51,920 nt of DNA from a virus (UHGV-0124386); one strand, 5' to 3'. Positions 28,850-41,115 are shown, counted from the stretch's first letter. Numbers and translations are program-made. The notes: generated by a model not told the origin, from the letters alone.

Positions 28850-28868
28850 CTTCGAAAAATTTTCGAAG
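28850..28868. repeat. near-perfect 19-bp palindrome CTTCGAAAAATTTTCGAAG
   Basis: Read directly; sits 19 bp after terminase stop in a 150-bp gap before the portal gene. Confidence 0.7.
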
Positions 28869-28979
28869 ATGAACAATAATAATTCTCAATTAGCTACACA
28901 AAATCTGCCTCACAATCCCTCACGAATTTTTCTATTTTTCGCGTAGCAACGCGTAAACATGTATTCAGGAGTAAACATT

Positions 28980-30353
28980 ATGCCATCCAATTTAGAATTG
29001 GCGGTTAATGCTGCCTTGTCTCAACGCCAGGCGGCCTTTGCCCGCTATGCAGCGGCACATCCGTTCACTATGGGGATAGATGCCAAACGTGATGCTGCGT
29101 GGAGTGAATACGGATTTAAAGAAGAAATCACCTATGCCGATTTATACAAACTGTATCGTCGCGGTGGTATCGCTCACGGTGCTATTGAGAAGATCATTAC
29201 TACGTGCTGGCGCACCAGGCCAACGCTGATTGAAGGTACGGAAGACGAGAAAGCGGAAAAGGAAACTTCGTGGGAAAGAGAAATCAAAAAACGATTCGAC
29301 AATAGATTCTGGCGCGTAATTGCTGAATGCGATCGCCGCCGCCTCATCGGTCGTTATGCTGGACTGTTAATTCACGTCAGGGATAACAAGCCGTGGGATC
29401 AGTCAGTAACAAAAGGCGTAGGCATTGCCAAATTTACCCCCGTATGGGCTGGTGCTCTTACACCGAAGGACTTCGAAGAAAACCCGGATAAAGAAAACTA
29501 TGGCCTGCCTACATGGTGGGAATACAAGGAGCGCATTAACAGTAAGACCATAGCAAGAAAGATACATCCAGATCGCATATTTATCTTCGGTGATTATTCT
29601 GATGATGCCATCGCTTTCCTTGAACCGTCCTATAACGCATTCGTTTCACTGGAGAAAGTGGAAGGCGGCAGCGGTGAATCATTCCTGAAAAACGCAGCAC
29701 GTCAACTGGCTATCTCGTTCGATAAAGAGATTGATTTCCGTTCCCTGGCTGCAACATACGGTTGCGACGTTACAGAGCTACGCGAAAAATTCAATGAAGC
29801 GGCAGAGGATATAAATAAAGGTAATGATGTGATGATGGCATTGCAGGGAGCTACCGTTAGCCCGCTGGTTACTGCCGTAGCCGATCCGTCCGCTACCTAT
29901 GACGTCAACCTGCAAACCGCCGCCGCTGGCATCGACATTCCAACGCGTATCCTGGTTGGGAATCAGCAGGGTGAGCGTGCATCAACCGAAGACCTCCGCT
30001 ACTTCAATAACCGCTGTATGACCCGCCGGGAGGAAATAGGAGGCGAGCTTGAGGAACTATTCCGCAAGATGGCAGATCTCCGCCTTATCAGTATGCCAGT
30101 AGACGTATCTGTGCTGTGGGACGACCTTAACGCCATGACAAAAGCTGAGCTACTCGACGCGGCATACAAAATGGCACAAATCAATCATGCATGTCTCGCT
30201 ACTGGTGAGGAAATATTCAGCGGTGACGAGATCCGTGAAGCTGCCGGATACGATGGCCCGGCTAATGAAGTAGAACTGGAAGACGAGGAAAACGATGATG
30301 AAGGTGAAGAAAATAATCAGGCGAATACCTCCAGCCGCGATAATGCCATCTAA
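28980..30353 (+). CDS. portal protein (458 aa from ATG 28980)
   Basis: Size, position after terminase, acidic C-terminus; SD AGGAG 8 nt upstream of ATG 28980; ORF track frame from 28959. Confidence 0.65.
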   Translation: MPSNLELAVNAALSQRQAAFARYAAAHPFTMGIDAKRDAAWSEYGFKEEITYADLYKLYRRGGIAHGAIEKIITTCWRTRPTLIEGTEDEKAEKETSWEREIKKRFDNRFWRVIAECDRRRLIGRYAGLLIHVRDNKPWDQSVTKGVGIAKFTPVWAGALTPKDFEENPDKENYGLPTWWEYKERINSKTIARKIHPDRIFIFGDYSDDAIAFLEPSYNAFVSLEKVEGGSGESFLKNAARQLAISFDKEIDFRSLAATYGCDVTELREKFNEAAEDINKGNDVMMALQGATVSPLVTAVADPSATYDVNLQTAAAGIDIPTRILVGNQQGERASTEDLRYFNNRCMTRREEIGGELEELFRKMADLRLISMPVDVSVLWDDLNAMTKAELLDAAYKMAQINHACLATGEEIFSGDEIREAAGYDGPANEVELEDEENDDEGEENNQANTSSRDNAI

Positions 30354-31239
30354 CACCGAAGACCCGACCATGACAGGGAAGTTAAGGTCTGGCGCTATTA
30401 AGCGTTTCAAATCCTGCCTGAATAAAATAGCCGATCCATATCTCGCCATACTTGACAGAATACAATATAGCCTGGCTGTTAATAAGAAATACACCTTTCA
30501 GATTTACATGGATGAACTGCATGACATGCTGGAGGACGCCAGCGACATGATTGATGAGATATTCGAGCTAACCGACCCGGAAAGTTTTTGGTTTTGGCAG
30601 AATTACGTGAAGGTGGCTTATCAGCGCGGCACGGCACAGGAATATGCCAACCTCGCTAACCAGTCTGTCACGTACTCAAGCGCCTATCCTGATGTGTCTG
30701 TCGTGCTATCCAGCACAACTTACCGCACACGCCTTGCCCTTGTCCGTACCCGTGTATTTGAGGAAATGCGCGGGCTGACAGCACAGATCAAAAAGGATAT
30801 GGCCCGCCGACTAACTGAAGGCATGGCCCGTGGTTTAAACCCACTGGAAATAGCGCGCACATTGAATCAGGAGACGCAATTACCGCTATACAGGTGTAAA
30901 CGTATTGCTCGAACTGAAATATGCACAGCGTTACGCACAGCGCGTATGGATGAGGCAGAAGCGGCGACAGAAGAATTTAATCTGCGCACTATGCAAATGC
31001 ACATTTCGGCATTATCACCGACTACCAGGCTATCGCACGCGCAGCGGCACGGTAAAACATACACCATAGATGAGCAGCGCGAATGGTGGAGTAGATCCCC
31101 TAATTCAATTAACTGCAAATGTAGCACGATTACCGTATTAGTTGACGAAGACGGTAACATATTAAACGAACGAATATTAGATCGGGCGCAAGAAAACTAT
31201 AAAGTTGCGCACGCTAAATATGGCGAAGATTGGGAGTAA
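30343..31239 (+). CDS. head morphogenesis protein (Mu F / SPP1 gp7-like minor capsid protein)
   Basis: Position after portal with overlapping start; size about 300 aa; ORF track frame 30295..31239. Confidence 0.5.
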   Translation: MPSNTEDPTMTGKLRSGAIKRFKSCLNKIADPYLAILDRIQYSLAVNKKYTFQIYMDELHDMLEDASDMIDEIFELTDPESFWFWQNYVKVAYQRGTAQEYANLANQSVTYSSAYPDVSVVLSSTTYRTRLALVRTRVFEEMRGLTAQIKKDMARRLTEGMARGLNPLEIARTLNQETQLPLYRCKRIARTEICTALRTARMDEAEAATEEFNLRTMQMHISALSPTTRLSHAQRHGKTYTIDEQREWWSRSPNSINCKCSTITVLVDEDGNILNERILDRAQENYKVAHAKYGEDWE

Positions 31240-32534
31240 AAACCGTGAGTAAAGAACTGATTCAGGTTAATACCAAATTAACCGCTAATACCATACGCCG
31301 GGAAACTTATAACGGACGCGAGCACATTGTTGTGCCATCATATACGCTGCCATTCAATATCGTTATGAATCGTGAATATTACCCGGAAGCTGAAATTATC
31401 GCTAATTACCAGTCACTGGAGGGTACGCTTGCCCCGCTGGGCCATCCTACCGTTGACGGTAAATTTGTTTCAGCATTTAGCCCGGAAGGATTAAACACGG
31501 GTTTTTGTGGTGCGTGGAACAGAAACGTTGAGTTACGCGGCAACCGTGTTTATGTGGAAAAATGGGTGGATGTGGAAACCGCCAGCCATTCAAGCCAGGG
31601 CCGCGAATTATTAGCCCGACTGGAAGCACTGGAGAAAGGAGAAAGCAAAGATCCTATCTGGTCGTCCGTCGCTGTATATCGCCAGCGTATGCCAGCCACC
31701 GAAAAAATGAAAGCCCAGGGTGCTGACCATGTAGTGAAAATCATGTCGATCGACCATGACGCTATCTTGCTGCATGAGCCGCCAGCCGCTTCGCCGGAAC
31801 AGGGCGTAGGCTTAATGGTTAATACCGACCAGGCGAAGCCGTTAATGGCGGTGGCAATGAAAGAAAATAGCTATCGCACACTTGAAAAACAGTTAACCGC
31901 TGCCGCGCGGGAAATGTTCCCTGACGCTGATTACGTATACGTGGTGGACTTCACTGATAGAGAGGTGACGATCGCCACTAATGAAAACTGTGCGGAAAGA
32001 TACAACTACGAAAAACAGGCTGATAAAATTATTCTCAATAATGGCGAGCTTGCAACCAACGAGGAAAGTAAATCATGGTTTGCTCAGTTCGCTGAACACC
32101 TTTCTAATCTTTTCTCCCTGAATGAAAAAATTAAGGCCAATAAATCGGAGGACGATCCCATGCCTTTGACAAAAGAAGAACGCGCCGAACTGGTAAAAGA
32201 AATTAACGAAGGCTTAGCCGCCAATATCGCTAATGCAGTAGCAGAGGCATTAAAACCAGTACAGGCAAGCGTAGAAGAATTGCAGACCAACCAAGAAGAA
32301 TTACAGACCAACCAGAAAGCAATTAAAGAAGAAATTGCAGCAAACGCAAATAAAGAAGTAGCAGAAAAACGCGCCGCAGTAGCAAAAGTTCACGGCGAAA
32401 TTGTTGCTAACGCATTAAGCGGTGAAGCATTAGAGGCAATGTTTAAATCCCTGGGTAAAGCAACTCCGCTAGCCGCCAACACAGCAAGTGAAGACAAAAA
32501 AGGCGAAGTCCCTGACTTTAACACTTATTTCTAA
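31230..32534 (+). CDS. scaffolding-like protein with C-terminal coiled coil (possible DUF2213-type)
   Basis: Position between head morphogenesis and capsid; C-terminal repeats EELQTNQEELQTNQKAIKEE. Confidence 0.45.
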   Translation: MGVKTVSKELIQVNTKLTANTIRRETYNGREHIVVPSYTLPFNIVMNREYYPEAEIIANYQSLEGTLAPLGHPTVDGKFVSAFSPEGLNTGFCGAWNRNVELRGNRVYVEKWVDVETASHSSQGRELLARLEALEKGESKDPIWSSVAVYRQRMPATEKMKAQGADHVVKIMSIDHDAILLHEPPAASPEQGVGLMVNTDQAKPLMAVAMKENSYRTLEKQLTAAAREMFPDADYVYVVDFTDREVTIATNENCAERYNYEKQADKIILNNGELATNEESKSWFAQFAEHLSNLFSLNEKIKANKSEDDPMPLTKEERAELVKEINEGLAANIANAVAEALKPVQASVEELQTNQEELQTNQKAIKEEIAANANKEVAEKRAAVAKVHGEIVANALSGEALEAMFKSLGKATPLAANTASEDKKGEVPDFNTYF

Positions 32535-40520: not shown

Positions 40521-40775
40521 TCACTTATGGCAACCGCGCACGCCAGATAATTCATTAAATTTATGATGTTCAACAATCACCCACTCCTTCAGATCCTGGC
40601 TATAGACTCGCCAGTCTAAATTGGCGCGGAAGGCGTAGCCGTAACCGTCTTTTAATTTTTTGGGCGACACATCCTTGTTTAAAAACGCGTTCAAAAGCTC
40701 CCTTGCTTTTTTAACTACACGTTCCGGCGCGTTTTTCTGTGCTTTCAGGTTTTTGTCAATCGCTACCAGTTTCAT
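40521..40775 (-). CDS. candidate RelE/YoeB-superfamily toxin-like protein (84 aa)
   Basis: Pattern ERVVKKARELLNAF...KKLKDGYGYAFRANLDWRVYSQDLKEWVIVEHHKF resembles RelE/YoeB toxins (KRIVKKINELIKD...HRLVY...); preceded by small ORF. Confidence 0.4.
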   Translation of the reverse strand: MKLVAIDKNLKAQKNAPERVVKKARELLNAFLNKDVSPKKLKDGYGYAFRANLDWRVYSQDLKEWVIVEHHKFNELSGVRGCHK

Positions 40776-40792
40776 AACTCACCCCATCATCC

Positions 40793-40948
40793 TTAGTTAA
40801 GTGCCTTCAGGAAGAAGTCCCGGTATTCATCTTCTTTCGCATTCATCATGAATTGACCGTATTTGAATGCGTCGTCGAAACCCTTAACGATTGCTATTTC
40901 CACTTGTTCGAATGCGTTATTTAGCATTACTACTACATAGCGTTTCAT
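40793..40948 (-). CDS. small protein (51 aa) upstream of toxin-like gene; candidate antitoxin
   Basis: Hand-translated MKRYVVVMLNNAFEQVEIAIVKGFDDAFKYGQFMMNAKEDEYRDFFLKALN; excellent SD AGGAGG 8 nt upstream; 17-bp gap to toxin-like gene. Confidence 0.35.
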   Translation of the reverse strand: MKRYVVVMLNNAFEQVEIAIVKGFDDAFKYGQFMMNAKEDEYRDFFLKALN

Positions 40949-41115
40949 TTTGGGCCTCCTTCGTTGGTACTGCTTTCTTCTTGCTTTCTATATACATCTT
41001 GTTGCATGCTACGTGAAGCCATTTTGTAAACTAGCTATAATCATTGTGACAAAGATCTCATTTTTCGCGTAGAAGCGCGTAAAGATATATACAAAATGTA
41101 ACTTGTGGGGGTTTT

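Follow-up and report, generated by a model that had tools for sequence, protein, structure and literature searches.

A conserved bulged-hairpin element upstream of the portal and tail protein M genes of mEp021-like phages, a candidate RNA operator

Among described systems, those closest to the element treated here are translational operator hairpins, such as the MS2 and PP7 coat-protein operators, Mu Com-mom and the action of lambda N on its own leader; activator-dependent late promoters with a conserved dyad, represented by P1 with its Lpa 'late operator' near -22, by P2/186 (Ogr/B) and by Mu (C); and leader stabiliser hairpins and intercistronic processing sites, as in the ompA 5' untranslated region or of the papBA type. 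Our subject is a 23-bp repeat that lies upstream of the portal gene and again upstream of the gene for tail protein M in the viral DNA UHGV-0124386 (51,920 nt; this whole stretch is referred to as the window), an mEp021-like (mEpimmI) temperate Escherichia coli phage. Late control in mEpimmI phages is assumed to be lambda-like, with one Q-dependent operon. On the comparative sequence evidence, the repeat belongs to an element that is real, strongly selected and confined to this lineage and to these two positions. It is very probably a regulatory signal, which we tentatively read as an operator acting at the RNA level. Both copies, with the gene starts that follow them, are located as listed here.

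28935-28957, plus strand: 23-mer copy 1, TTTTTCGCGTAGCAACGCGTAAA, upstream of the portal gene
28934-28960, plus strand: bulged hairpin, portal copy (alignment A1, columns 8-34), A-UUUUU-CGCG-U / AGCA / A-CGCG-[U]-AAA-C-AU
28961-28982, plus strand: portal leader, GTATTCAGGAGTAAACATT, nearly invariant (diversity 0.007), including the Shine-Dalgarno (SD) sequence AGGAG (28967-28971) and the start codon ATG (28980-28982)
28980-30353: portal gene (start 28980; Pfam Phage_portal_3)
41061-41083, plus strand: 23-mer copy 2, TTTTTCGCGTAGAAGCGCGTAAA, upstream of tail gene M
41060-41086, plus strand: bulged hairpin, M copy (alignment A1, columns 8-34)
41107-41111, plus strand: SD-like GGGGG of M
41116-41118, plus strand: start codon of tail protein M (start 41116; Pfam Phage_min_tail)

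The two 23-mers sit on the plus strand where the first-pass annotation had placed them and differ at 2 of 23 positions, both in the centre of the repeat. The window holds no further match at up to three mismatches, and none is expected (0 in 100 shuffles); a covariance model of the element, run with filters off, likewise retrieved two sites only (28927-28963, 58.9 bits, at portal; 41053-41089, 62.1 bits, at M), the next best reaching 13 bits with E>1. Some details of that annotation had to be redrawn. The internal direct repeat, given there with an N5 spacer, is found in neither copy when searched in that form; it actually reads CGCGTA-N4-CGCGTA, with a period of 10. The shared TCT flank is present at both copies, but out of register (TCTA-T5 vs. 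TCTCA-T5) and variable in relatives. The distance of 25-35 bp to the first gene, measured from motif end to ATG, applies to M (32 nt) and comes out shorter at portal (22 nt), and the terminase-portal gap of about 150 bp, although 148 nt long in the window, is only ~78 nt in most relatives. What had been missed is that the 23-mer is also a dyad, TTTT(T)CGCG-N6-CGCG(T)AAA, with a variable centre.

Relatives were fetched via neighbouring proteins or the upstream promoter, never via the motif. The portal copy was present in 50 of 50 portal loci, with invariant CGCG arms around the centres TAGCAA (46), TAGAAG (2), TAGCTA (1) and TAGCGA (1). The M copy was found in all 31 mEpimmI-type M loci of viral contigs; here the centre reads TAGAAG in 20 loci, TAGAAT in 4, TGGAAG in 2, TAGAGG in 2, TAGCAA in 1 and TAGAT in 2, the last form being 1 nt shorter (L027/L029). 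One arm carries a C-to-T change at 3 of the 31 M loci, and one lineage has a run of four T residues instead of T5. A metagenome scan anchored on the M-upstream promoter returned 22 readable M leaders, every one with the element. Diversity over the 22 stem positions was 0.006 for the portal and 0.053 for the M copy. By comparison, the non-coding DNA on either side reached 0.19-0.24, and third codon positions in the terminase, portal and M genes reached 0.24-0.33. The expectation that related phages carry the 23-mer at the same junctions was thus borne out, at both junctions in every relative and with conservation far above that of the surroundings. In L025, L089 and L129, loop types have been exchanged as blocks between the sites.

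The element is absent next to distant M homologues (66-70% identity) and from outgroup phages with homologous terminase and portal genes, which in those phages lie 10-15 bp apart. Searching 2.9 million viral contigs for the pattern TTTCGCGT-N5-CGCGTAAA gave 81 matches, of which 45 fall at the portal junction, 32 at the M junction and the other 4 within unrelated coding DNA rich in GC. Five matches, all in unrelated metagenome-assembled genomes and equal to chance expectation, came from a scan of one genome per bacterial species, and the species-representative genomes contained no relatives of the capsid protein. Presence in all relatives, low diversity and matches elsewhere at chance level together mark this as a real, strongly selected element that is specific to lineage and position.

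Folding extends the dyad to a 27-nt hairpin of 11 pairs with one bulged U, laid out as A-UUUUU-CGCG-U / 4-nt loop / R-CGCG-[U]-AAA-N-AU and followed by the SD at a distance of 9 nt in the portal leader and 23 nt in the M leader. In every portal leader the core hairpin is predicted with a probability of 0.81-1.0, mostly at least 0.95. An outer stem that would pair the portal SD was tried and dropped, as it is not conserved (z -0.15). At M, the hairpin is set into a larger module that has a paralogue upstream of tail gene L.

41019-41041, plus strand: promoter-like module, the 14-mer CCATTTTGTAAACT followed by TATAAT (41036-41041)
41058-41090, plus strand: 33-nt block TCATTTTTCGCGTAGAAGCGCGTAAAGATATAT in the M-upstream module, exactly absent from the homologous L-upstream module (alignment A2)
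43040-43130, plus strand: divergent-promoter module upstream of tail gene L, paralogue of the M-upstream module, without the hairpin

Since the L-upstream paralogue lacks exactly the 33-nt block, the hairpin is a separable module and not part of the promoter. The TATAAT, invariant in relatives, lies ~20 nt upstream of copy 2; together with the 14-mer it suggests a promoter, which would place copy 2 in the 5' leader of a putative M transcript. A simple sigma-70 scan did not call this module because it has no good -35. At the portal copy, the alignment of relatives revealed no conserved promoter: CACAAT, 18 nt upstream, is replaced in many relatives by CACAAC or CACAAA, and a 70-bp indel rewrites the -35 position.

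As to function, a sequence-specific RNA operator for a putative phage factor, if any protein-recognised RNA role is counted, seems to us the leading candidate, at a little short of an even chance. The hairpin would be transcribed within plus-strand late mRNA, in the 5' leaders that precede the portal and M cistrons. There a putative phage RNA-binding factor would recognise the CGCG stem, the bulged U and the U-A-G that makes up the 5' half of the loop; the operator would thereby co-regulate translation and/or mRNA stability of the low-copy virion proteins portal and tail-tip protein M. We infer that RNA is the active form, that a protein binds it and that it affects translation or stability, not elongation. 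All RNA readings taken together are rather probable.

The pattern of constraint is consistent with an RNA operator. The complementary T5/A3 flanks and the CGCG arms are fixed while the centre varies, and both the shorter TAGAT loop and the 4-T variant keep a hairpin but alter any DNA half-site spacing. On the plus strand 95.3% of cells pair, as opposed to 82.5% in the mirrored minus-strand structure. Changes at the six variable pairs are all one-sided via G.U, namely C>U in either CGCG arm and A>G in the outer stem. The element is also asymmetric about its dyad, in that T18-A19-G20 are fixed, their partners 21-23 are free and the bulged U never changes, which is unlike the site of a symmetric DNA-bound dimer and like a recognised loop. 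Moreover, both copies lie just upstream of an SD, the portal copy being intercistronic without a conserved promoter, and a pure direct-repeat model leaves the complementarity of T-run and A-run unexplained.

Several observations weigh against an RNA operator. Compensatory double changes number zero in 81 viral and 22 metagenomic leaders, which is attributable to the shallowness of the clade; a shuffle control of covariation was uninformative. Every change in the stem is a transition, a frequent type of mutation in any case, and independent events are few. Fold energies are modest, with -6.2 (z -1.2) for portal and -9.3 kcal/mol (z -2.4) for M. Furthermore, in the M leader (41048-41125, plus strand) the 5' arm and loop of the hairpin can instead pair with the M start-codon region, an alternative fold that is predicted to outcompete the hairpin in ~10 of 26 M leaders; the probability of the AUG being paired is 0.83-1.0 in the window and in these ~10 leaders, which are those with ...GGGGGTTTTATG, and the fold is not seen in ...GGGGGAATCATG-type leaders. 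As it occurs in only ~10 of the 26 M variants, we rejected the idea of a conserved riboswitch-like fold sequestering the M start codon. Nor did a candidate binding protein emerge: all 20 open reading frames (ORFs) from Q to lysis fall into families of unknown function, so that no factor can be named, and searching 40 ORFs against Pfam, NCBIfam and PHROGs for a late activator or RNA-binding protein gave unknown-function matches only. A screen for arginine-rich motifs picked out a few small basic ORFs (19483-19695, 19700-20065, 20297-20530) and nothing specific.

Fixed arms around a free centre would also fit a DNA site with two contacted half-sites, and a tandem CGCGTAR-N3-CGCGTAR accounts for the fixed T28 without invoking a bulge. 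We weighed a double-stranded DNA site for a phage DNA-binding protein, made of tandem CGCGTAR motifs 10 bp apart with T-run and A-run flanks, which we consider unlikely, though the most serious competitor. It gains from the fact that the visible conservation is one of sequence, not structure, with zero covariation, and that the direct-repeat arrangement covers every fixed position, T28 included, as well as the free 3-nt spacer. The site might act as an operator or a roadblock, at M beyond the promoter and at portal within the terminase-portal junction. Alternatively, the site could serve an activator of internal late promoters with short leaders, using the weak -10-like AAANAT hexamers at 28955-28960 and 41081-41086; the invariant T34 and A30 would then be -7 and -11 of the hexamer. 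Internal promoters before the head and tail blocks would be sensible because terminators and minus-strand cassettes cut the late region, and late promoters with dyad elements are familiar, the dyad lying beside the -10 in P1 and at a greater upstream distance in P2/186 and Mu.

The variants with a 1-nt shorter spacer (L027/L029) or four T residues, however, would shift the register of such a site, the asymmetry about the dyad argues against a symmetric dimer, and direct repeats alone would not account for the complementarity of the T- and A-runs. A promoter at portal would be awkward as well: the copy ends 9 nt before the SD, so that the resulting leader would be 13 nt long and begin at the SD. 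The scans called no acceptable -10 or -35, and no sigma-70 promoter overlapping either 23-mer, the AAANAT hexamers being confined to the 3' edge; besides, M already has its invariant TATAAT 19 nt upstream of the element. A late promoter of the activator type (P1 Lpa, P2 Ogr or Mu C) is difficult to reconcile with an asymmetric element that lacks a good -10 and tolerates spacing variants. The phage encodes a Q-lambda-family antiterminator (PF03589), and no Mor/C, Ogr or Lpa-like activator was detected, nor any activator family in the Pfam, NCBIfam and PHROGs scans of 40 ORFs.

Could the hairpin be a passive RNA structure, either a 5' stabiliser after endonucleolytic cleavage in the U-rich tract or a barrier by which terminase mRNA and head mRNA would decay independently? 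Its hairpin potential, the U-rich single-stranded 5' flank and its place at the 5' start of two blocks of cistrons would suit this role; with four G-C pairs only, any stem mutation would be destabilising, which may alone fix the arms in a shallow clade. Yet a fixed loop U-A-G and a never-substituted bulged U exceed the needs of a passive hairpin, its stability is modest, the copies stay 21/23 identical, and their loop types swap as blocks (L025, L089, L129). We consequently think a purely passive role improbable.

Comparison with other known element classes placed the 23-mer in none of them. An intrinsic terminator was called in neither of two scans: on the plus strand the T-run precedes the stem and UAAAC or UAAAG follows it, and on the minus strand A5 follows. 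A Q-binding element or pR'-type promoter is contradicted by location, as the 23-mers lie 5 and 17 kb downstream of the pR'-tR'-like site (~23980-24085). Rfam 15 produced no match at or above the gathering threshold anywhere in the window. On inspection against the consensus of the RfaH ops element, GGCGGTAGNNTG, only GTAG(C) is shared and the flanking ops G residues are absent. A few further candidates bear a weak resemblance and were set aside: a mimic of the type I-E CRISPR repeat, NagC/Mlc or PurR boxes, CsrA sites, and the TTGC-N6-TTGC geometry of CII, whose -10 would land on the portal SD.

With its 8-bp inverted arms flanking a 6-bp centre, the element does resemble the core of a tyrosine-recombinase site, and one copy adjoins the terminase gene, so that DNA recombination, packaging (for instance as a terminase recognition site) or replication came into consideration. 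But in nearly all genomes two of the six bases of the central spacer differ between the copies (TAGCAA vs. TAGAAG), and because the copies are direct repeats separated by 12 kb, recombination between them would remove the head and tail genes. Packaging, one of the roles proposed by the first-pass annotation, is not indicated by anything we found: the second copy has no packaging gene anywhere near it, and the element is missing from outgroup phages whose terminase and portal genes are homologous. A role of this kind is accordingly very remote. From the same proposal, a selected cis-element serving a dedicated regulator or processing/stability remains the best class of explanation.

The remaining comparison concerns nut sites. 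The mEp021-like group is described as Nus-dependent and as having an N-like antiterminator, Gp17, which acts at three early nut sites; the paper describing it reports mEpimmI phages to be as common as lambdoid phages among human faecal isolates, and late-region hairpins, palindromes or repeats go unmentioned there (PMC11893012). Gp17 and the three nut sites are present in the window.

9185-9475: Gp17, N-like, with arginine-rich motif NARERRRIKRENERK
~9091-9127, plus strand: nutR1, boxA CGCTCATTAACAA, boxB GCCGC-UGGAAGU-GCGGC
~16362-16390, plus strand: nutR2, boxA TGCTCTTTAAAAA, boxB CGCU-GAAA-UGCG
~7872-7840, minus strand: nutL, boxA GCTCTTTAAAAA, boxB CGCU-GCGA-AGCG

The 23-mer hairpin might be a boxA-less, nut-like site, that is, a boxB-type RNA by which Gp17 (re-)loads antitermination before the head and M blocks. 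Besides the presence of Gp17 with its arginine-rich motif and of three nut sites, this idea draws on a common build (short GC stem, closing U, purine-rich loop), on the loop UGGAAG of L006/L008, which equals the first six loop bases of nutR1, and on terminators that follow both blocks. The M copy precedes a terminator and comes after the TATAAT and the same 14-mer as at PL and before nutR2. Against this, all three nut sites have a clear boxA, whereas no boxA-like GCTCTTTAA-type sequence lies upstream of the hairpin, where the flanks are TCTCATTTTT or TTCTATTTTT and vary among relatives (TCTTA, TCTAA, TATCA, TATA, TTTA, TCCA). The constraint patterns are opposite: the nutR1 boxB of L317, the most divergent relative, keeps its loop and changes its stem (UGCAC-UGAAAU-GUGCA), and L317 keeps the arms of both 23-mers. 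The hairpin loop starts with A (79 of 81 viral-contig copies), not with the G of GNRA-like boxB loops, the hairpin covariance model (R1) scores none of the nut sites, and the portal copy, without a conserved promoter, stands in an operon expected to be Q-antiterminated. Given the opposite constraint patterns, the missing boxA and the missing model score, we rank the Gp17 reading low, as having little likelihood. The element is, in sum, a member of no family tested, be it nut, terminator, sigma-70 or activator promoter, Q-binding element, recombinase core or Rfam family. Conservation marks it as clearly functional.

The 14-mer that links the M module to the early region, CCATTTTGTAWACT, has four exact copies in the window, and 36 sites at up to three mismatches compare with 11.6 expected.

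7950-7963, minus strand: 14-mer, PL region
8793-8806, minus strand: 14-mer, beside PR
16334-16347, plus strand: 14-mer, before nutR2
41019-41032, plus strand: 14-mer, before M

It has the appearance of a promoter core, an operator or both, shared within this phage group. Weaker copies occur, for example, at 3965, 16265 and 43016, with related sequences upstream of the tape-measure gene and of gene L. The PR-side copy is oriented leftward, facing the rear of the bidirectional terminator after the repressor gene; a leftward transcript of ~100 nt (~8690-8806, minus strand), possibly a small or antisense RNA between repressor gene and PR, may originate here.

The terminase-portal junction contains a second feature highlighted by the first-pass annotation.

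28832-28901: optional AT-rich 70-bp insert directly after the terminase stop codon, containing a 19-bp palindrome (28850-28868)

The palindrome, CTTCGAAAA-A-TTTTCGAAG, exists as described, but its candidacy as a signal did not survive comparison. It sits in the optional 70-bp indel, which is carried by 14 of 50 relatives and is absent from mEp021; the palindrome is perfect in 11 of the 14 carriers and imperfect in 3. Over its first 60 nt the insert matches, at 83% identity and on the opposite strand, part of the coding interior (...MRMNIIQLRKKIEVDNNQ...; L248, 2501-2560) of a gene for a 188-aa hypothetical protein. This gene belongs to an island beside eutA, present in E. coli ATCC 8739 as well as in 16 further genomes, and the palindrome centre differs in this homologue. 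The same 19-mer occurs in viral contigs of 94-148 kb with unrelated flanks. While the 70-bp segment folds well (z -4.4), it is best explained, judging by this homology, as a gene-fragment scar from recombination or insertion, outside the conserved element; we rejected the palindrome as a regulatory signal because of the optional indel and the gene-fragment homology.

In the regions concerned, the window is 77-91% identical to mEp021, mEp010, mEp013, mEp044, mEp515, mEp554 and MagusPhagus; the portal junction is 100% identical in a prophage of E. coli UMNK88 and is carried by 35 of 5,426 complete E. coli genomes. The large terminase gene lies upstream of the portal gene. The latter is labelled 'anti-CBASS protein Acb1 family protein' by RefSeq (Prokaryotic Genome Annotation Pipeline, PGAP) in all E. 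coli prophages matched (H39-H50). This label is probably a propagated misnomer, since Pfam gives Phage_portal_3 and no NCBIfam hidden Markov model matches. Other landmarks of repression and late expression are as follows.

8037-8684: CI-like repressor
17803-18525: Q-lambda-family antiterminator (PF03589)
24062-24080: terminator directly upstream of the holin gene, marking the pR'-tR'-like late start (~23980-24085)
40203-40223: bidirectional intrinsic terminator after the tape-measure gene, separating it from a minus-strand cassette and M
41670-41687: terminator-like hairpin after the block of M and a 60-aa ORF, called on the minus strand and bidirectional in the mEp021 annotation

The tail genes are broken by three minus-strand cassettes (37139-37703, 40228-40948, 41764-43039), each flanked by a bidirectional terminator and a divergent promoter module. 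Their contents are an unannotated 27-aa ORF (~37620-37703), a ParE-like toxin with a 51-aa upstream partner, and KilAC/ANT plus HNH domains. Between the lysis region and the small terminase gene, ~750 bp (26077-26816, plus strand), unannotated in the mEp021 record, comprise nine back-to-back mini-ORFs of 20-36 aa, each with one hydrophobic helix (mean hydropathy 0.8-2.45) and with abutting or overlapping stops and starts. Tandem paralogues are found between Q and the lysis cassette, with three consecutive small ORFs of phrog_15318 (23167-23747) and two of phrog_31142 (21216-21652), all on the plus strand and both families being of unknown function.

The location of this strongly selected, lineage-specific element, exactly in front of the portal and tail-tip genes, suggests additional control over how much of these low-copy virion proteins is made; in an alternative role, it may restart or protect expression across a late region broken by three antisense cassettes. 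Carried further, it could define a post-transcriptional 'late regulon' within a Q-driven lambda-like operon or a boxA-less re-arming of elongation complexes at two internal points. We hold this rather unlikely; either, if true, would add a level of regulation so far undescribed in lambda-like phages. With 33 nt, two copies and natural variants, the element is an easy target for mutagenesis and pull-down, and if it turned out to be one half of a portable RNA-protein pair, it could serve as a tool like boxB-N and MS2.

Measured against the described systems, the element shares with lambda-type nut boxB a short G-C stem closed by U, a purine-rich loop and the leader position, in a phage that itself encodes an N-like protein; it is unlike boxB in that the arms are fixed and half of the loop is free, and in having an extra A-U lower stem, a bulged U and no boxA. 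With the late promoters of P1, P2/186 and Mu it has in common a dyad-like element repeated before separate late gene blocks, but here there is no good -10 at a fixed distance, the element is asymmetric, spacing variants exist and Q is present. The ompA/papBA type likewise has a hairpin where a block of cistrons begins in a polycistronic mRNA, preceded by a U-rich stretch, whereas the loop UAG, the bulged U and the near-identical copies go beyond what a passive stabiliser needs. As for the translational operators, the hairpin differs in including neither SD nor AUG and in standing at two distances from the SD (9 vs. 23 nt); as in the operators of MS2/PP7, Com-mom and lambda N, it is a bulged hairpin with fixed loop and bulge bases, placed directly upstream of a ribosome-binding site and reused for more than one cistron.

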